The notes under the pieces were generated by a model that saw only the letters and a program-made list of their open reading frames with translations, had not been told where the DNA came from and did not search any database. 64,000 bases of DNA, taken from an uncultured delta proteobacterium. Lineage in GTDB: Bacteria > Desulfobacterota > Binatia > Binatales > Binataceae. The DNA lies in assembly GCA_963842085.1 (NCBI GenBank), contig CAWJET010000002.1:160001-224000 (forward strand), given 5' to 3'. The translations under genes and the position numbers were made by a program. The stretch's first letter is position 1, and each line of letters starts with the position of its first letter. Positions 7,010-33,663 of this stretch are shown here, piece by piece.

Positions 7010-8172
7010 TGGAAACTGACAACGGATTCGTGCTGTCGCCGGAACTGCGGGCGCTTCGCGACCAGGTGGGGAAAATAATTCGCGAGGAAATTATCCCGAT
7101 CGAGGCGCGGTGCGATCCCGACGCGCCTGAGATTCCCGAGGACGAGTACTGGCGGATCGCGCGCAAGGCGCAAGCCGCCGGCATGTGGTGCATGGGTGCG
7201 CCGCGCGAGTACGGCGGCGGCGGCCTCGGCACGTTCGAGATGTGCGTGCTTATGGAGGAAATGGCACAGCATCGCATGGGACTCTACAACCCCGGATGCG
7301 GGGTGTTCGGACGCACGCCGCCGCCGGTCATCTACGCGGGCAGCGAGGAGCAGAAGCGCATCTACGCCGGCGGCACGATCAAGAATGCGTGGCACACCTT
7401 CTTCGCGATCACCGAGCCGTCGGGCGGCTCCGATCCGGCCGGCGCGATCCAGTGCAAGGCGGTTCGCCAGGGCGATACCTACGTTCTCAACGGCACCAAG
7501 ATTTTCATTTCGCATGCGCATGAGGCGGAGTGGGGCGTCGTGTTCACCCGCACCGACGCCAAGGCCGGGCGCAAGGGGATCACCTGCTTCATAATCAAAA
7601 AGGGCACGCCGGGATTCACGCCGCGTCCGATTCGCACGCTGCGTACGTCGGCCTTACCCAACGAGGTCCAGTTCGAAGATTGCGTCGTCCCGATCGAGCA
7701 GCGCCTCGGGCCCGAAGGCGAGGGATTGAACCTGTGCTTGGATCTGCTGACTCGGCTGCGCTTTCCGTACTCGGCGTGCAATGTCGGAGTGGGAGTGGCT
7801 GCGCTCAGGATGGCGATCGATCACGCCAAGCAGCGCAGCACGTTCGGCGAGCTGCTCTCGAAGCGGCAGGCCATCCAGTGGATGCTCGCGGATTCGGAGG
7901 TCGAGCTGCGCGCTGCGCGATGGCTGACGTGGGAAGGCGCGTGGAAGGCCGACCGCGGCGAGGACTTCCGCACCGAGGCGTCGATCGCAAAGCTCTACTC
8001 GAGCGAGGTGCTCGGCCGCGTGATCGATCGCGCCGTGCAGATCCATGGCGGCTACGGCGTCAGCAAGGAGTTTCCAATCGAGCGCTGGTACCGCGAGGCG
8101 CGAATTCGCCGGATCGGCGAAGGCCCCAGCGAAGTGCATCGGATGGTGATCGCGCGCTCGCTTCTGCGATGA
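7009..8172 (+). CDS. Acyl-CoA dehydrogenase
   Basis: FAITEPSGGSD, LNGTKIFIS, RSTFG, QIHGGYG, IGEGPSEV. Confidence 0.95.
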   Translation: METDNGFVLSPELRALRDQVGKIIREEIIPIEARCDPDAPEIPEDEYWRIARKAQAAGMWCMGAPREYGGGGLGTFEMCVLMEEMAQHRMGLYNPGCGVFGRTPPPVIYAGSEEQKRIYAGGTIKNAWHTFFAITEPSGGSDPAGAIQCKAVRQGDTYVLNGTKIFISHAHEAEWGVVFTRTDAKAGRKGITCFIIKKGTPGFTPRPIRTLRTSALPNEVQFEDCVVPIEQRLGPEGEGLNLCLDLLTRLRFPYSACNVGVGVAALRMAIDHAKQRSTFGELLSKRQAIQWMLADSEVELRAARWLTWEGAWKADRGEDFRTEASIAKLYSSEVLGRVIDRAVQIHGGYGVSKEFPIERWYREARIRRIGEGPSEVHRMVIARSLLR

Positions 8173-8182
8173 GGATCCAACG

Positions 8183-9367
8183 ATGAGTCTGCCGCTTGAT
8201 GGAATCCGCGTGATCGACCTGGGCCAGGTGTATGCGGCGCCGTACTGCACGCTGCAACTGGCCGCGATGGGCGCCGATATCATCAAGATCGAGCCGCCCG
8301 TTACCGGCGAGGTGCTGCGGCGGCCGGAACTGCCGCCGGGCGGCGCCGGCTACTCGTTCCTGATGCTGAATGCGAACAAGCGCTCCGTCACGATCAATCT
8401 GAAAGATCGGCGCGGCCAGCAAATCGTGCTCAAGCTGCTCGAGGACGCCGACGTGCTGGTCGAGAATTATCTTGACGGCGTCATGGAGTCGTTCGGCCTC
8501 GGCTACGATCAGATCGCCGCGCGGTTTCCGCGGCTAATTTACGCCTCGGGCAAGGGTTACGGCTCCGACAGCAGGTACGCGAAACTTGGCTCGATGGACA
8601 ACACGATCCAGGCGTCGTCGGGATTCATCAGTGTCACCGGATTCCCCGACCATCCCGTAAAGACCTCGGCCACTTTTATCGACATGGGCACCGGCAGTCA
8701 CATGGTGAGCGGAATCCTGGCCGCGCTGATCCACCGCGGGCGGACCGGCCGCGGACAGCATGTCGAGGTGGCGATGCTCGACGTCGCGATACCCGCGCTG
8801 ACCAGCGCGGTCGCGCCCGCGCTGCAAGGGATGAAGTTCAAGCGGCTGGGAAATCGTCATTGGGGCGCATGCCCGACCAACGTCTATCCCGCGCGCGACG
8901 GCGAGGTCCTGATCTTCTGCCTCACGGAAGCGCATTGGCGCACGCTGGCGAAATTGATGGGACGTGAAGAACTGATCGCCGATCCCCGATGCAGGAATCA
9001 TGGCGCGCGGCTGAAAATCGCCGACGAACTCGACGCGATAGTTTCCGATTGGACGAAAGAGCAGCCGCGCGATGCGATGGTCGAGGGACTGATTGAAGCG
9101 GGCATTCCATGCGCGCCCGTTCGGACGGTCGAGGAAGTGGTCGCTGATCCCGAAACCGCGAAGCGCCGGATGCTGATCGACAGTGACTATCCAACCCGCG
9201 GTAAGATTCGCGTAGCCGGCACTCCTATAAAGATGTCGGACGCGCCCGAAGGCGACCGGCCGATGAGGCGTCCACCCGAACTGGGCGAACACAACGCCGA
9301 GGTGCTTGGCTCGATCGGAATCGGCGCGGATGAGCTGGAGCGCCTCAAGCGCGAGGGAGTTGTCTGA
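8183..9367 (+). CDS. CoA transferase family III (CaiB/BaiF)
   Basis: PLDGIRVIDL, MGADIIKIE, NANKRS, ADVLVEN, PPELGEHN. Confidence 0.95.
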   Translation: MSLPLDGIRVIDLGQVYAAPYCTLQLAAMGADIIKIEPPVTGEVLRRPELPPGGAGYSFLMLNANKRSVTINLKDRRGQQIVLKLLEDADVLVENYLDGVMESFGLGYDQIAARFPRLIYASGKGYGSDSRYAKLGSMDNTIQASSGFISVTGFPDHPVKTSATFIDMGTGSHMVSGILAALIHRGRTGRGQHVEVAMLDVAIPALTSAVAPALQGMKFKRLGNRHWGACPTNVYPARDGEVLIFCLTEAHWRTLAKLMGREELIADPRCRNHGARLKIADELDAIVSDWTKEQPRDAMVEGLIEAGIPCAPVRTVEEVVADPETAKRRMLIDSDYPTRGKIRVAGTPIKMSDAPEGDRPMRRPPELGEHNAEVLGSIGIGADELERLKREGVV

Positions 9368-28580: not shown

Positions 28581-29345
28581 ATGGCGGCCGAGAAGAACGA
28601 CGATCCGATCGAGGCGATGATCTTGTCGCGAGCGTCTCGTCGCACGCATCCGGCGACCGACCCCGCAAGTCTGGTCGAGACCCCTGACGAACACCCGGCT
28701 GCCGAAGAGCAGCCTCCGGCAGAAAGGCCCCGGCCCGAACCACGCGAGCCTCAATCTCCTCCGCTGCGTCCGCCGCCGCATTCGGCACTCGCAGCGCGGC
28801 TTGAAGTTCGTCCGATAGGTACGCCGATGGGCTTGCGCGAGCTGGCCGCGCTCCACAAGCGAACCTGGAAGATGCTGAACGTGCAGGAAAAGAGGGTGCA
28901 CGTGCTGCTATGGCCGCTCGCGATCCATTTTGGCCTGTACGAGGTGAGCCCGGGGAGCGAGCGGCGCCGGCCACCGCTGATTGGCGCATTCTGGGCGCGA
29001 TGCCTGGCGGACGCGCCGCTGACGCTGGGCCATCTGTATCCCGCGCAGTTGTTCAAGGGGATGCTCGCCTCGGAAGTGTTCGAGTTCGGCGGGATGGTGA
29101 TCGACCCGAACTACCAGGGCAAGGGCCTGGTCAAGATGATGTCGGACACGGCGCGATTGTTTGTTTTCTCGCGCCGCCCCAAGCTGCTGATCACGAATCC
29201 GGTCGAGCCGCTTTACGAGATGTACAAACAGCTCGGGCTCAAAACGGTGGGCCGCGAGCCGGTCGAGCATCCGCATGCCTTCAACGTGAAGGTGTGGCTG
29301 ATGTACGGCAGATTCGACGAGATGTCGAAGCCATACTTCATGTAG
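28581..29345 (+). CDS. Hypothetical protein with C-terminal GNAT-like fold and Pro-rich N-terminus
   Basis: EFGGMVIDPNYQGKGL resembles GNAT motif A, with LYEMYKQLGL as motif B. The N-terminal ~70 aa is low-complexity. Confidence 0.65.
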   Translation: MAAEKNDDPIEAMILSRASRRTHPATDPASLVETPDEHPAAEEQPPAERPRPEPREPQSPPLRPPPHSALAARLEVRPIGTPMGLRELAALHKRTWKMLNVQEKRVHVLLWPLAIHFGLYEVSPGSERRRPPLIGAFWARCLADAPLTLGHLYPAQLFKGMLASEVFEFGGMVIDPNYQGKGLVKMMSDTARLFVFSRRPKLLITNPVEPLYEMYKQLGLKTVGREPVEHPHAFNVKVWLMYGRFDEMSKPYFM

Positions 29346-29391
29346 GATTTTACTACACCTACGATTTCGCCTTGTGCTCCGGTTTGCTGCC
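29343..29391 (+). repeat. Left direct repeat (att-like) of island
   Basis: TAGGATTTTACTACACCTACGATTTCGCCTTGTGCTCCGGTTTGCTGCC is 47/49 identical to 33615-33663. It is a detached copy of the SDR 3' end (KPEHKAKS*). Confidence 0.92.
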
Positions 29392-29411
29392 TGATGAGGC
29401 GGCAATCGCGC

Positions 29412-30110
29412 TCATAACTCGAAGGCGCGAATATCTATCAGTATGTGGGCAAGAACGCAGGCCGGCAGGTTTCGGCGCCAGAGATAGAGCGCGACGAACA
29501 GCAGCAGTATTGGGCCTTTTATCAGCATACCATACAGTCCCCAAACCGGCGCGTGGACCAGCACGTTGACGATAAACGGCACTGATGCGCCTAACATCTT
29601 GCTCCCTGTCAGTTCTTCGATTCGCTCGATCGCATAGCCACGAAAGCCGACCTCTTCAGCGATTCCGTTAGCTAGCAGCCCCGATAGATCAAGCCACTTC
29701 GGCAACGAAGCATACATAGCGCCGCCTACCGTCAACTCCACTGCAAGGGCCGGTATTCTATCCGCCATCGAGAGCAGGCGTGGACTGATTTGAAGATAGG
29801 CTAACAATACTAATATCGCACTTAACAAATCCCCCAAGGAGGGAGCGCGGATCCCGATCGATGCGAGTGGCCTCCGTTCCCAACAGACGACCAGTAAGGG
29901 CAGGGCGATGGTCACCGCTATCTTGAAGACCAGACCGATAGACTCCCAAGCAGAAATCCAGGATAGCCCCCAGACTTTCATAATCAGGTGAAGAAAAGGT
30001 TCCCTGTAAGGAGGTATAGGAAGAAGCAAAGCTATAGCAAGGCCTACCAGCGTGGCGGGACTCAACGCCTCGCTGGAGGATCTCGATCTTTCTTGAGCAG
30101 GCAGAATCAA
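29412..30110 (-). CDS. CPBP/Abi (CAAX-type) intramembrane glutamic protease
   Basis: EEVGFRGY, LVH and AHILID motifs in a multi-TM protein. AAGGGAG precedes the TTG. Confidence 0.88.
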   Translation of the reverse strand: MILPAQERSRSSSEALSPATLVGLAIALLLPIPPYREPFLHLIMKVWGLSWISAWESIGLVFKIAVTIALPLLVVCWERRPLASIGIRAPSLGDLLSAILVLLAYLQISPRLLSMADRIPALAVELTVGGAMYASLPKWLDLSGLLANGIAEEVGFRGYAIERIEELTGSKMLGASVPFIVNVLVHAPVWGLYGMLIKGPILLLFVALYLWRRNLPACVLAHILIDIRAFEL

Positions 30111-30461
30111 CCCTAACTATATCTCCCTTGACCGAATTGTCTGACTATACCGTCTACGGCGTCTTAATTTTTTGGATTTCCACGGTGTGTTCGCGACTCG
30201 TATTACCCCGCGGCACTTGGCACATAATCAACCCGGACCGATCGTTCCGATCAAGTTTAGGCTAGCACATGCTGTGAACAGTAGCGTTGGTCAGACCATG
30301 CCGGCTGATCAACCCTCGCGTACAAGGACCGGTACTATGATGGCGAGCGATTGCGAGGCACACTTAAGAGGCCGTAAAACTCTTCTCTGGCGGTCCAAGA
30401 ACCTTCCTTCCAAGCGCGGCGTCAAGTCTATCCTGAGGTCGCGCCTGCACAAATGACGCCA

Positions 30462-31254
30462 TCAACATGGGACGTTATTACCGTCATCCAGTTGACCTCG
30501 GACACCGGTAGTGTTTCGGGGAGTATTTACCTTGTGCCCGCCCGGATTAATGACATTATCTATAATCCATTGTTTAAACTGTTCCCAGTTAGAGGGAGAA
30601 GGAGGACTTGGTGGCGCAGGCGTCGGTGTCGGCGTACTTGTCGGTGTCGACGTAAAGTCCTGACCAAGGCCCAGCGGGCGAGCGCTGGAGGGTTGCGGGT
30701 CCCCGCATATCTTTAGACCCGCGGACCCCATGGTCGGAATCAGCCCGTCGGAGACACCCAGTATGACCGGATACAGCGGGTGGCGGCCGTGGAGCAACTG
30801 GCGCGGTGTTGGCGGGGCGCTGCTGCCGCCGCCAAAGAGGTCCTCGAAAAAGCTGACTGCGGCGCCGATAGCGCCGCCTATCACCGCACCCGCAAACCAG
30901 CCGGGTGGTCCGAATTCACTTAAGGCGAGCGACCCCGCGAGAGCACCTGCGGCGGCGCCCCCTCCTATGTCTTCGGCGCCCGTCGCATAGTTTGCAGGGC
31001 TAAAGAACCCCGGTGCCGGCGCGCCGGAGGGCGCGGCATCTGCGGACTGTAGAACTGACCGCTGCCGGTATAGTAGTACGGCGCGTCGAGAGGTTCCTGC
31101 TCCATGCCGCCATACAGGAACGGCCAAAGGGTCGTAGCGCCGCTCAGCGTCCGCGTCCCCGACGGATCGTAGGTGTATGTCGTCGCCGGCTGCGACTGAG
31201 TCGAGGCTGCATTGACCAGCGCGATGGTCGAGCCCGACGCATCGATCAGCGGCA
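30462..31254 (-). pseudogene. 5'-truncated, frameshifted RHS-repeat protein C-terminal fragment (cassette C)
   Basis: Frame 1 (31254 to ~31040) reads PLIDASGSTIALVN...TYTYDPSG...PFLYGGMEQE...YYYTGSGQFYSPQ, an RHS-associated core. It shifts near 31040 into a Gly-rich hydrophobic helix, the HGRHPLYP block and a PT-rich tail. Confidence 0.8.
30718..30850 (-). repeat. Conserved pre-tip block copy C (FFEDLFGGGSSAPPTPRQLLHGRHPLYPVILGVSDGLIP)
   Basis: 30 nt identical to copy B (ATGACCGGATACAGCGGGTGGCGGCCGTGG). CCATGGTCGGAATCAG is shared with copy A. Confidence 0.92.
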
Positions 31255-31629
31255 CTATTTCGGCTTCAATCGCGTATCGTCGCTGGAGATGCACTTTGAA
31301 CCTAAGGCGGCCAAGCCGAACGTCCGCTGCACTGTGCTGCTCTGTGAAGGCATCTCCTCGACGCCCGAAGGCGCGTCGGCCAGCAATCTCTTCCTTACGT
31401 CGGCAATAGTTTCTGAGCGGTAGTCTTCGCAATCGGCCCTCGTCGGGAATGCCCCCGATTCGCCTACCTTCTCTCCTCTCATAGCCTGCCACTGGCTAAT
31501 CGGAGCAGTCAGGTCGGGTCCAATTAGTGGTATTCCCGAACGCTCTGCCTGCGGCGGGAACATGAGGAACCACGACAGAAGGAGCGGCAAGGAGTGAACA
31601 CTTAGCGATGTGTGGCCGCATGCGTTCAT
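31255..31629 (-). CDS. Small hypothetical protein, probably exported (WFLMFPP...APISQW...F...CE...CISSDD.RL)
   Basis: Starts 6 nt after the upstream stop. Hydrophobic N-terminus and two Cys in the mature part. Confidence 0.6.
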   Translation of the reverse strand: MNACGHTSLSVHSLPLLLSWFLMFPPQAERSGIPLIGPDLTAPISQWQAMRGEKVGESGAFPTRADCEDYRSETIADVRKRLLADAPSGVEEMPSQSSTVQRTFGLAALGSKCISSDDTRLKPK

Positions 31630-31635
31630 GGTGGC

Positions 31636-32100
31636 CTAGGGTTCAGAACGTCGCGTCAGCCTTAACCGATCGAGTGGCACCATAACCGTTCTCTCCTTCT
31701 CGCTTTCATGGTCGATAATTCTCAGGACGAGTTTGATATCAAAGGGAGGCGAAATCTTCGCGTCAATTTTGCCGATCTCGACAAAGTTATTGAAATAGCG
31801 TGCACCCTCGGCTTCGAAAGCCGACGATTCGACTATCGCGTCAGCCTTCAATTGGGAGCGTCCGCCGTCCGCGTTGTCCACGCTGACGTTCCACTGAAAA
31901 GGCACCTTCATGCTCAGAATCACAGCGCCAACAGTGTCGAGCGTGAAGCCATTGATGCCCTCAGTGGAGCGCAGCTCGATCTGCGGCGCAGTGACACCGT
32001 AGTACTCAGAAAATGTGCTGTTCTCGAAATTACCCGACCCAGAAGCGGGCATCGCGAGAATCCCTAGGAGCGCTACCAGCAGTCCTTTCGTGAAATTCAT
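31636..32100 (-). CDS. Secreted hypothetical protein, candidate immunity protein for the DPBB tip
   Basis: Sec signal MNFTKGLLVALLGILAMPASG. Starts 13 nt after the tip-B stop. Confidence 0.7.
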   Translation of the reverse strand: MNFTKGLLVALLGILAMPASGSGNFENSTFSEYYGVTAPQIELRSTEGINGFTLDTVGAVILSMKVPFQWNVSVDNADGGRSQLKADAIVESSAFEAEGARYFNNFVEIGKIDAKISPPFDIKLVLRIIDHESEKERTVMVPLDRLRLTRRSEP

Positions 32101-32113
32101 ATCGCTGATTCTC

Positions 32114-32638
32114 TCATTGCAGAGGAGGCTGAGGCCCTGCGGGAAGCGTAACCGTTACGGGGATGTGCCCCTCACTCAGACTGCCGCCTGTAAGCGCCTT
32201 GAACGCACCGGGCGACAGGTCTATGATTCGATTCTTTCCCTTCGCGTACGGCCCGTGATCGATAACTTTCACCGTAATGGTTTTCGGAACGTTAGAACCA
32301 GGCTTCAGATAGGTAACATTAGCTTCTGTTCCGCACGGGAAGGTTCCGTTCGGACCGACTATCTTCGGACTCATCGCAGCGGTGAAGCCCTCAGGGTCTG
32401 AGTACACGTAATTGGAGCAACCCGTGTGCCCTGTAGGGTAGTAAAAGCTAGCCTCGCCGCTGATGGTCATCGGGTCCGCAGACCCTTGCGCGGCAGAAGC
32501 CTCGTCCGGGATCAGACCATCCTGAATTCCCAAGATGACCGGATACAGCGGGTGGCGGCCGTGGCGCAACTGGCGCGGAATCGGAGGGGCACTGCTGCCG
32601 CCAAACAACCAGTCGAAGATGTCCTGGAAACAATTCAC
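32114..32638 (-). CDS. Orphan toxin-like cassette B: conserved block plus RlpA-like DPBB (lytic transglycosylase-like) domain
   Basis: GEASFY, FTAAM, FPCGT, TVKVIDHGPY and RIIDLSPGAF match the RlpA/DPBB_1 pattern. No signal peptide or strong start (GTG 32638). Confidence 0.8.
   Translation of the reverse strand: MNCFQDIFDWLFGGSSAPPIPRQLRHGRHPLYPVILGIQDGLIPDEASAAQGSADPMTISGEASFYYPTGHTGCSNYVYSDPEGFTAAMSPKIVGPNGTFPCGTEANVTYLKPGSNVPKTITVKVIDHGPYAKGKNRIIDLSPGAFKALTGGSLSEGHIPVTVTLPAGPQPPLQ
32507..32617 (-). repeat. Conserved pre-tip block copy B (FDWLFGGSSAPPIPRQLRHGRHPLYPVILGIQDGLIP)
   Basis: 37 nt identical to copy A (TGGCGGCCGTGGCGCAACTGGCGCGGAATCGGAGGGG). Confidence 0.92.
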
Positions 32639-32640
32639 CG

Positions 32641-33000
32641 TTAGCCGCCGTCTCTGAGGAACGCCTGGATCCCAAACACAGTTGCGGCAGCCAGAGAGAT
32701 AACCGCAGCGACCAGCAGCCCGAGGCCGATCATCGCATCCGCCAGGAAGGGGATTATCGTGATGGGGTGCCACGTGACCAACACGGACGCTGCTGTCAGC
32801 AGGATCGCAAGGACCATAAGCCCGAAGGGCCTTCGGCCTGTGCGCCATCCCGCACCCAATACCACGAGCGCGCCCACGGCTGGGAGGCCGTAATCCTGGA
32901 GGATCCAGCCAGCGGTCTGGGGAAAAAGTGCCCACAATACCGCAAGTACGGTCGCAATAGGAAAAATGATCCAAAATACCCGCTGTTTATAGGATCGCAT
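32641..33000 (-). CDS. Small ~4-TM membrane protein, candidate immunity protein for tip A
   Basis: RBS GGAGGAG precedes ATG 33000. An alternative ATG at 33015 overlaps the tip-A stop (TGATG). Almost entirely hydrophobic. Confidence 0.72.
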   Translation of the reverse strand: MRSYKQRVFWIIFPIATVLAVLWALFPQTAGWILQDYGLPAVGALVVLGAGWRTGRRPFGLMVLAILLTAASVLVTWHPITIIPFLADAMIGLGLLVAAVISLAAATVFGIQAFLRDGG

Positions 33001-33014
33001 CGGATGCTCCTCCA

Positions 33015-33614
33015 TCAATTCCCGTGCCCGCAATTGAGGAACTGCGCAACGCAGTTCGCATAGCGAGCTGCGGTGATACCGCCGCAAACGGTGAGAGCTC
33101 CGCTCACTGCAAAACCGGTTGCGCCTTCACAGCCGGCCAAGGTCTCGGGGAATGCCGGTCCGGTAGCCGCAGATATAGGGAAGCATCCGGCAGCGAGCCC
33201 CGCGCCGAATTCCAGAACACGCTTTGCGCACTCAGGGTTCGCGAAGACGGGCTTCACGCAGGCTTCGTATTGCTCAAAACACATAGCCTGGTTATCGCTA
33301 TTGGGCTTGGGCTGCAGCGGGGGGTCAGGACAAAGGTCGGGGTCTCCGCAGACTGGTGGCTTGCCCGCGGACTCCATGGTCGGAATCAGGCCGTCGGAAA
33401 AACCCAAAATCAGCGGATACAGTGGATGGCGGCCGTGGCGCAACTGGCGCGGAATCGGAGGGGTGTCGCTGCCGCCCCCGCCGAAGAGGTCGTCGAACAA
33501 CTCAAACAGCCCTTCCGCTATCAACCCTATAACAACGGCCGGCGTCGCAACACCTAGAGAAACGCCTTCAGCACCGACTGGAAATGCGTTGAAAGCGCTG
33601 ATGGCCCCGGCCGT
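33015..33614 (-). pseudogene. Orphan toxin-like cassette A: conserved block plus Cys-rich hydrophobic tip, 5'-truncated at the island boundary
   Basis: The frame is open from the right repeat (TAGAISAFNAFPVGAEGVSLGVATPAVVIGLIAEGLFELFDDLFGGG...) with no ATG before the conserved block (only TTG 33524). It has 10 Cys. Confidence 0.7.
33364..33496 (-). repeat. Conserved pre-tip block copy A (FDDLFGGGGSDTPPIPRQLRHGRHPLYPLILGFSDGLIP)
   Basis: Aligned by eye with copies B and C at both DNA and protein level. Confidence 0.92.
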
Positions 33615-33663
33615 TAGGATTTTACTACACCTACGATTTCGTCTTGTGCTCCGGTTTGCCGCC
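33615..33663 (+). repeat. Right direct repeat (att-like) of island
   Basis: TAGGATTTTACTACACCTACGATTTCGTCTTGTGCTCCGGTTTGCCGCC. Contains the last ~10 codons and the stop of the SDR gene. Confidence 0.92.

Follow-up and report, generated by a model that had tools for sequence, protein, structure and literature searches.

Orphan rhs-CT/rhsI arrays of Escherichia coli, Salmonella and Dickeya consist of promoter-less 3' cassettes, in each of which a piece of the RHS core is followed by a variable C-terminal tip and a linked immunity gene. Recombination between them takes place in the conserved part, which ends at PxxxxDPxGL. In the acquired interbacterial defence islands of Bacteroidales, immunity genes are kept on acquired DNA without the matching toxin gene. 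Proteins of the Abi/CPBP type (Rce1-like, PF02517) provide self-immunity to bacteriocins and are encoded beside a small secreted toxin. In Photorhabdus Rhs1, the C-terminal cut is reported to follow two DPLGL motifs 17 residues apart, the second of which contains the catalytic Asp, and to be required for full toxicity (PMC8636562). The pre-toxin domains PT-VENN, PT-TG and PT-HINT are described as conserved modules directly N-terminal to variable toxin domains (PMC3482391). We analysed a stretch of 64,000 nt (the window; positions 160,001 to 224,000 of contig CAWJET010000002.1, assembly GCA_963842085.1) from an uncultured member of the Binataceae, which contains an array of three RHS-type C-terminal cassettes sharing a conserved block of about 45 residues. 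The array is a discrete insertion of ~4.2 kb at window positions ~29392-33614, and we consider it very probable that it is an acquired orphan tip/immunity island from a family-restricted, non-canonical, Sec-exported clade of RHS proteins.

The array resembles the orphan rhs-CT/rhsI arrays in its layout of cassette, tip and tightly linked candidate immunity gene, and in exchange at a conserved part. However, both DPxGL motifs are missing here, and the junction is found ~130 aa farther downstream, past a second variable segment. Moreover, there is no main gene in the genome, and the carriers of the block are Sec-exported without PAAR or VgrG. Unlike in the Bacteroidales defence islands, the immunity genes still stand behind decayed tips, no recombinase is present, and the target is duplicated over 49 bp.

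The edges of the island are well defined. A repeat search of the window yielded 49-bp direct repeats at both ends (29343-29391 and 33615-33663), 96% identical to each other. The repeat covers the convergent stops of a GNAT-like open reading frame (ORF) and an SDR gene, and the junction of these two genes is thus duplicated. In two genomes of the same genus, G204 and G317, the site is empty: the flanks abut with an overlap of 34-35 nt, and the three-way alignment contains a single copy of the repeat. The GC content is 0.56-0.59 across 29-33 kb, against ~0.62-0.66 in the surroundings. The array therefore shows the marks of an island, being flanked by direct repeats, absent from the site in relatives and different in GC content from its surroundings. 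Judged by these features, it was most likely acquired horizontally, and it was placed between unrelated convergent genes. The SDR gene is present in 45 of 47 genomes of the genus; in the other 15 block-bearing members the block is never found on the contig of the SDR gene or near this gene. A scan for promoters and terminators was uninformative (4 and 8 sites versus 1.9 and 3.8 expected).

The GNAT-like ORF (28581-29345, plus strand, 254 aa) ends in the left repeat and has weak matches to GNAT acetyltransferases (E 0.07-0.09). It is kept beside the SDR gene in same-genus genomes.

All three cassettes have the same orientation and lie on the minus strand, as stated in the initial annotation, which had been made from the sequence of the window alone. 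From right to left, the island and its edges contain the following features.

33615-33663, no strand: right copy of the 49-bp repeat, in which the SDR gene ends (last codons and stop); 96% identical to 29343-29391.
33015-33614, minus strand: cassette A, a start-less open frame with the end of a hydrophobic pre-block segment, the block (33364-33479), CGDPDLC and a hydrophobic tip rich in Cys, Gly and Ala.
32641-33000, minus strand: ImmA, a 119-aa membrane protein with at least three hydrophobic segments; putative immunity protein for tip A.
32114-32638, minus strand: cassette B, whose GTG start, directly past the ImmA stop, falls within the block (32490-32605); a DPBB (RlpA/expansin-like) tip comes next.
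31636-32100, minus strand: ImmB, 154 aa with a signal-like N-terminal segment; putative periplasmic immunity protein for tip B.
31255-31629, minus strand: orf124, a doubtful 124-aa ORF between ImmB and the RHS fragment.
30923-31255, minus strand: RHS-core C-terminal fragment, VPLIDASGSTIALVNAA...TYTYDPSG...YYYTGSGQFYSPQ, with one TAG inside and in a frame different from that of cassette C.
30462-31127, minus strand: cassette C, with a glycine-zipper/hydrophobic segment, the block (30718-30833), CGDP, a linker rich in Pro and Thr (P/T linker) and a short tip.
29412-30110, minus strand: gene of a CPBP/Rce1-like (Abi-type) membrane protein, with which the island ends; candidate immunity gene for cassette C.
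29343-29391, no strand: left copy of the 49-bp repeat, with the stop of the plus-strand GNAT-like ORF and the duplicated 3' end of the SDR gene.

The open frame of cassette A extends up to 33614 and begins inside the pre-block segment, and the homology between A and C reaches upstream of the block, into the hydrophobic segment. After the block the cassettes diverge, as described initially. Tip A, rich in Gly and Ala, contains 10 Cys; it has no Pfam family. Tip B is a DPBB_1 domain (PF03330, E 4.3e-08, 33.7 bits with the cut-off at 28.8), which is also matched weakly by the NCBIfam RlpA and expansin models, below their cut-offs, and is 70% identical to the tail of protein P0135. Tip C stands behind the P/T linker. 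The small genes noted behind tips A and B are indeed closely spaced: the ATG of ImmA, preceded at 6 nt by GGAGGAG, lies 15 nt past the stop of tip A, and ImmB starts 14 nt past the stop of tip B. The CPBP gene is a clear member of its family (PF02517, E 9.1e-12, 45.6 bits with the cut-off at 22.4). Neither ImmA nor orf124 has a Pfam family at E<=0.001. Weak similarity was found between orf124 and an inter-cassette stretch of a related locus, L014 (positions 8007-8267; 29% over 111 aa, E 2e-4), and orf124 could be a remnant or an immunity gene left stranded.

Cassette C had been described as joined to an RHS-core fragment. The fragment is real, being 53% identical to residues 1001-1111 of the full-length RHS protein P0007. 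However, its link to cassette C exists only via a change of frame and an internal TAG.

The genome that carries the island (4.93 Mb, two contigs, 100% complete) contains no main RHS gene, as P0007 used as a query matches only three fragments in the window. RHS repeats (PF05593) are absent at E<=1 among 33 scored candidates, and the block does not occur elsewhere in this genome. With no RHS repeat, no full-length gene, headless or frame-shifted cassettes, and the array itself being a 4.2-kb insertion, the idea of a toxin system working in this genome has to be abandoned. As cassettes A and B are headless, C is frame-shifted and no RHS gene is present, the tips cannot be delivered here.

The block common to the three cassettes, LFGG-x-PPxPRQLxHGRHPLYPxILG-x-DGLIP, is ~45 aa long and precedes unrelated C-termini. 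In the in-frame alignment of 59 positions, the block of A shares 69% and that of B 66% of its residues with the block of C, and 31 columns are invariant (F..D.F.GGS..PP.PRQL.HGRHPLYP.ILG..DGLIP..SA). On the DNA level the blocks form a three-copy family of 116-nt direct repeats (30718-30833, 32490-32605 and 33364-33479). These copies are mosaics of exact shared runs, the longest being 37 nt between A and B, 30 nt between B and C, and 16 nt between A and C (the LIPTM codons), in agreement with the mosaic identity seen initially.

A profile constructed from the three blocks was searched against 1.84 billion proteins and matched 176 cluster representatives at E<=1e-3, of which 122 reach E<=1e-10. 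Most of the matches are 100-400 aa long. Of the 62 with at least 140 aa upstream of the block, 61 have an RHS-core end there (42 identified by a strict pattern and 19 variant ends by eye), P0096 being the sole exception. The block is followed by the CGDP extension (CGDPxxC) in 53 of 147 members, and by xGD in a further 12.

Among 5.8 billion proteins, six of at least 722 aa combine the RHS end with the block, and four of these, P0004, P0007, P0008 and P0162, are full length (1,310-1,328 aa). The latter begin with a Sec-type signal peptide, after which come a proline-rich stretch, DUF6531, the RHS repeats and, towards the C-terminus, the block. By these features the clade is exported via Sec, without PAAR, VgrG or TpsA. 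Its RHS end has the pattern ...TYTYDPSG...WPFQYQGMEKEFTDP.PYYY.G.GQFYSPQLVRSLSE. Further downstream the order is a linker rich in Ser and Gly, a variable hydrophobic or glycine-zipper segment, the block, CGDPxxC in some members, often a P/T linker, and the tip. The tail past the HPLY core has a median length of 125 aa.

The end of the RHS shell in this clade is homologous to the canonical core, TIGR03696, only in part. In hhalign the two were aligned with probability 98 over 68 columns, and the alignment ends at RFISQD, paired with RSLSE, before the first DPxG. Thus the homology reaches only up to ...FYSPQLVRSLSE, whereas the last ~30 residues of the canonical Rhs/TcC plug, which contain the catalytic Asp in Photorhabdus Rhs1, are replaced by the low-complexity linker. 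Indeed, DPxG[LFWM] is found near the C-terminus in none of the four full-length members, and Rhs_assc_core (TIGR03696) does not match P0004, P0007 and P0008 at E<=0.1. It is not detected at the block loci of five carrier genomes at E<=1 either, while the control genomes were positive. As both DPxGL motifs are missing, the clade is without the known release machinery. Four of the five carrier genomes contain canonical RHS genes elsewhere (TIGR03696, 47-90 bits). Fifteen canonical core ends from these four genomes, which represent the canonical core in the hhalign comparison, have the form ...RARYYSPTL.RFISQDP.GF.GG..NLY.YA.N.P....DPTGL, with variable sequence after it. The possibility that the block is a diverged DPxGL region was considered and rejected: for the canonical core against the block, hhalign gave a probability of 0.04. 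As far as can be judged from sequence, the carriers constitute an undescribed, non-canonical RHS subclass, and the block is an unrecognised pre-toxin junction in it, as was initially proposed.

No Pfam or NCBIfam model covers the block in the cassettes, in the long members, or in 150 members. The known pre-toxin domains PT-VENN (PF04829), PT-TG (PF14449) and PT-HINT (PF07591) had no match on the cassettes (E<=1), five long members (E<=0.01) or 150 members (E<=0.001). A PDB sequence search with an alignment of 37 blocks gave no matches at E<=1, and the best scores in a search of the ESM Atlas, <=0.81, are inside the range of shuffled sequences. The strings RHPLYP, HGRHPLY, PRQLLHG and PRQLRHG had no match in the literature searched, the supplements of Zhang et al. 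2012 being outside its scope; among the matches listed for Rhs and polymorphic toxins in Binatota or Binatia, there was no mention of Binat*. Like the pre-toxin domains, the block stands directly N-terminal to variable tips. It differs from them in having no Pfam match, in its small size and proline richness, and in the predicted lack of structure of the isolated peptide; in the genomes searched, it occurs in a single bacterial family.

Single-linkage grouping of the 128 tips with 60 aa or more gave 52 components of similarity, the largest of which (37 members) includes tip A. Together with the 61 RHS-core ends and the four full-length proteins, this supports the initial expectation that the block stands ahead of diverse C-termini in RHS/YD proteins. 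Most tips of the 150 members have no Pfam family. The recognisable ones are PLA2 (5, 4 and 1 members over three models), 3D (2), DPBB (2), PF13699 (2) and DUF4329 (2), with single matches to Ntox44, Ntox37 and JAB. The toxins of the clade appear to be directed mostly at the cell envelope, the identifiable ones being PLA2, DPBB/3D and Gly-zipper peptides.

One possibility is that the hydrophobic/glycine-zipper hairpin and the block together form a membrane-insertion or translocation unit which moves the toxin across the outer membrane of the target. The pre-block segment of P0161 is predicted to form two helices directly ahead of the block (residues 827-850 and 858-882), and Pfam Gly-zipper models match 5-6 of 150 members as well as, weakly, the pre-block segment of cassette C. 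This would also suit envelope-acting toxins exported via Sec without PAAR, VgrG or TpsA, and a glycine zipper is reported to be required for the entry of a type VI secretion system effector (PMC10240207). However, the pre-block segment is highly variable, and some of its classes are not hydrophobic; the confidence of the modelled helices, as measured by the predicted local distance difference test (pLDDT), is only ~60-68. We thus regard such a unit as rather unlikely.

Another possibility is that the block is a new module of self-processing or release, which replaces the aspartyl autoprotease of the DPxGL region and cuts at or near the block or CGDP. Both DPxGL motifs are missing in the clade, although the corresponding cut is reported to be needed for the toxicity of canonical Rhs (PMC8636562). 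Furthermore, the residues P, R, L, H, R, H, P, L, Y and G show little or no variation among 37-150 members, and the ratio of nonsynonymous (dN) to synonymous (dS) differences in the block is 0.27. On the other hand, five intact full-length paralogues, with frames of 1,279-1,430 aa, were found at loci L054-L058 (G446:C3, G456:C8, G442:C4, G443:C4 and G426:C1), and in all of them the junction is degenerate: LFGG and parts of ILG and GL.P are kept, but H-x-R-H-P-L-Y is gone. The block is thus not indispensable to the clade, and a catalytic role is unlikely. In addition, CGD is present in just 53 of 147 members, and the block has neither a fold in AlphaFold2 (AF2) models nor similarity to Pfam families or PDB chains. 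A release module of this kind therefore seems unlikely.

The DNA around the block shows exchange. In an ungapped comparison of 17 copies, the nucleotide identity falls from 0.79 within the block to 0.39 on its upstream side and 0.30 on its downstream side. Among 21 multi-member tip classes, 11 occur behind at least two pre-block classes, and all five multi-member pre-block classes occur ahead of at least two tip classes. Within single arrays the block may be uniform: HQRH is found in all four copies of L008 (PRKLLHQRHPLYP), and HKRH (HKRHPLYP) in both copies of L010, which points to gene conversion or recent duplication inside these arrays. Since the flanks assort independently, variants are homogenised and the shared runs in the window are mosaic, exchange occurs in and around the block, and the initial suggestion of a recombination module is supported by the independent assortment of different sequences on its two sides. 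The similarity between tip B and its relative in genome G446 begins inside the block, at DGL.PD..SAAQGS.DP.

All this could also be observed if the block had no protein function and were kept merely as a DNA homology tract for gene conversion and cassette exchange. The mosaic exact runs, the variants homogenised within genomes, the independent assortment on both sides and the degenerate blocks of the full-length paralogues are consistent with that. However, the 20 core codons differ mostly synonymously across genomes (dS 0.62 and dN 0.17 over 134 copy pairs from the 17 copies). As dS exceeds dN, the amino acids being kept where the DNA differs, the peptide itself is under constraint, and we believe that a pure DNA tract is quite unlikely. 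We infer from these data that the block is a structural or linker junction kept under constraint, and that it also serves as the recombination anchor.

Pairing of tips with partner genes was analysed in 35 cassettes from the window and 25 related loci, in which the tips are mostly 80-130 aa long. In genome G446 of the same genus (locus L054), an intact 1,366-aa frame of the RHS clade has a DPBB domain as its tip, with 58% identity to tip B, and directly behind it is encoded a protein 45% identical to ImmB. These relatives of tip B and ImmB constitute the strongest case for a candidate pairing in the window. Together with two further non-identical pairs of co-varying cassettes, they are in line with the initial proposal that tips are linked to the genes downstream. 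A prediction of the complex of tip B with mature ImmB (score 0.00, mark 0.34) has no bearing either way, as the controls were not folded. CPBP genes follow four of the 35 cassettes, the type in which small-toxin immunity is known being here associated with RHS cassettes, where it would provide putative protection. Since its homologues directly follow cassettes in L014, L008 and L023, 18-25 nt after their ends or overlapping them, the CPBP gene is the likely partner of cassette C.

In the family of the window's genome, G000, 28 of 165 genomes contain the block, this genome included: 15 of the 46 other genomes of its own genus, nine of 11 in a second genus, and one in each of three further genera. 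Outside the family, it occurs in none of the remaining genomes of a 401-genome sample of the phylum. A foreign origin of the whole block family, suggested by its presence in one of the 401 phylum genomes, is ruled out by the count of 28 of 165 and by the identities of MutS: those of G401, G402 and G404 are 92-93% identical to MutS of the window's genome, compared to 46% for a genome of the same class. Thus the clade is at home in this lineage, although patchy within it. Orphan and truncated copies clearly outnumber complete genes in the genomes of the family, to which fragmented assemblies may add.

The arrays of four related genomes (L006-L009) occupy the same neighbourhood, beside genes encoding a ~700-aa TPR membrane protein, a ~310-336-aa protein without a Pfam family, and vWA/zf-HC2 proteins. 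These flanking genes gave no lead to secretion or processing.

We suggest the following scenario for the island. Three orphan C-terminal cassettes would have arrived by horizontal insertion, each accompanied by a putative immunity gene. The block would be the conserved junction between two independently assorting variable parts and the homology anchor for swapping modules of tip plus immunity gene. In the protein, it would be a structural or linker element that presents or releases the tip, rather than a catalytic site. As the genome lacks a complete toxin gene, the island is most likely protective and not a weapon: ImmA, ImmB and the CPBP protein, which could still be functional, would protect the cell against relatives with matching toxins. 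Relatives with a matching weapon do exist, G446 being an example.

Several observations weigh against this scenario. The cassettes, ImmA, ImmB, orf124 and the CPBP gene fill the 4.2 kb, and none of them matches a recombinase family; the island thus lacks an integrase or transposase of its own. The structural models of the block are of low confidence: AF2 gave a mean pLDDT of 58.6 for the block with tip A, with no fold for the block, and 56.6 for P0161 (1,043 aa), with the block below 50 and no confident docking. As the block is coil or has pLDDT <50 in both models, nothing structural is established by them. Co-variation of tips and partners is seen in few independent cases. Five pairs of cassettes are alike in both the tip and the downstream DNA; three of these are identical duplicates, and the two independent ones have identities of 62%/56% and 79%/85%. 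Ten pairs are alike only in the tip, mostly in a CGDP extension of 17-23 aa; the one genuine tip pair among them, c09_L008 and c12_L010 (45% identical), is without a similar downstream gene. A further 13 pairs are alike only downstream, largely in the start of the next cassette or in CPBP genes. No similarity was detected among the four tips with a CPBP gene behind them, and the CPBP gene of the island is ~350 nt from cassette C, as opposed to 18-25 nt or an overlap at the other loci. The immunity roles of ImmA, ImmB and the CPBP protein are assigned from position, co-variation and cellular compartment only. Finally, none of the 58 block matches in the 28 genomes of the family is in an open frame longer than 871 aa, although fragmentation of the assemblies may contribute to this.

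The weakest of the alternatives is that the array is a silent reservoir for toxin switching, the main RHS gene being present in the population or in unassembled DNA: in relatives, truncated or full genes are often followed by orphan arrays, but with 0 RHS repeats in a 100% complete genome of two contigs, cassette C frame-shifted and interrupted by an internal TAG, and the island placed between unrelated convergent genes, we find this very unlikely. A broader proposal combines release or translocation with spread. The hairpin and the PRQLxHxRHPLYP block would form a new module replacing the DPxGL autoprotease, and decayed arrays would spread as integrase-less mini-islands via an att-like duplication of ~49 bp, serving as acquired immunity islands; we consider this proposal unlikely.

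The reading as an acquired orphan tip/immunity island has several implications. A clade that lacks both DPxGL motifs still has polymorphic toxins and linked immunity genes, which raises the question of how a Sec-exported RHS shell releases and delivers its toxin. The hidden Markov model of the block offers a way of finding such cassettes and, with its 176 clusters and most tips without a Pfam family, should yield new small toxins that act on the envelope, along with new immunity proteins. The clean insertion and the empty sites in congeners make this a well-defined acquisition of tip/immunity DNA without the toxin gene, which bears on the spread of immunity in soil and peat communities.

In G402, one of the genomes that carry the block, many canonical RHS core ends with differing tips form a large array (G402:C1:814000-834000, loci L033-L044). 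This genome has 13 TIGR03696 matches, ten of which lie within 20 kb on both strands, apart from its block locus.

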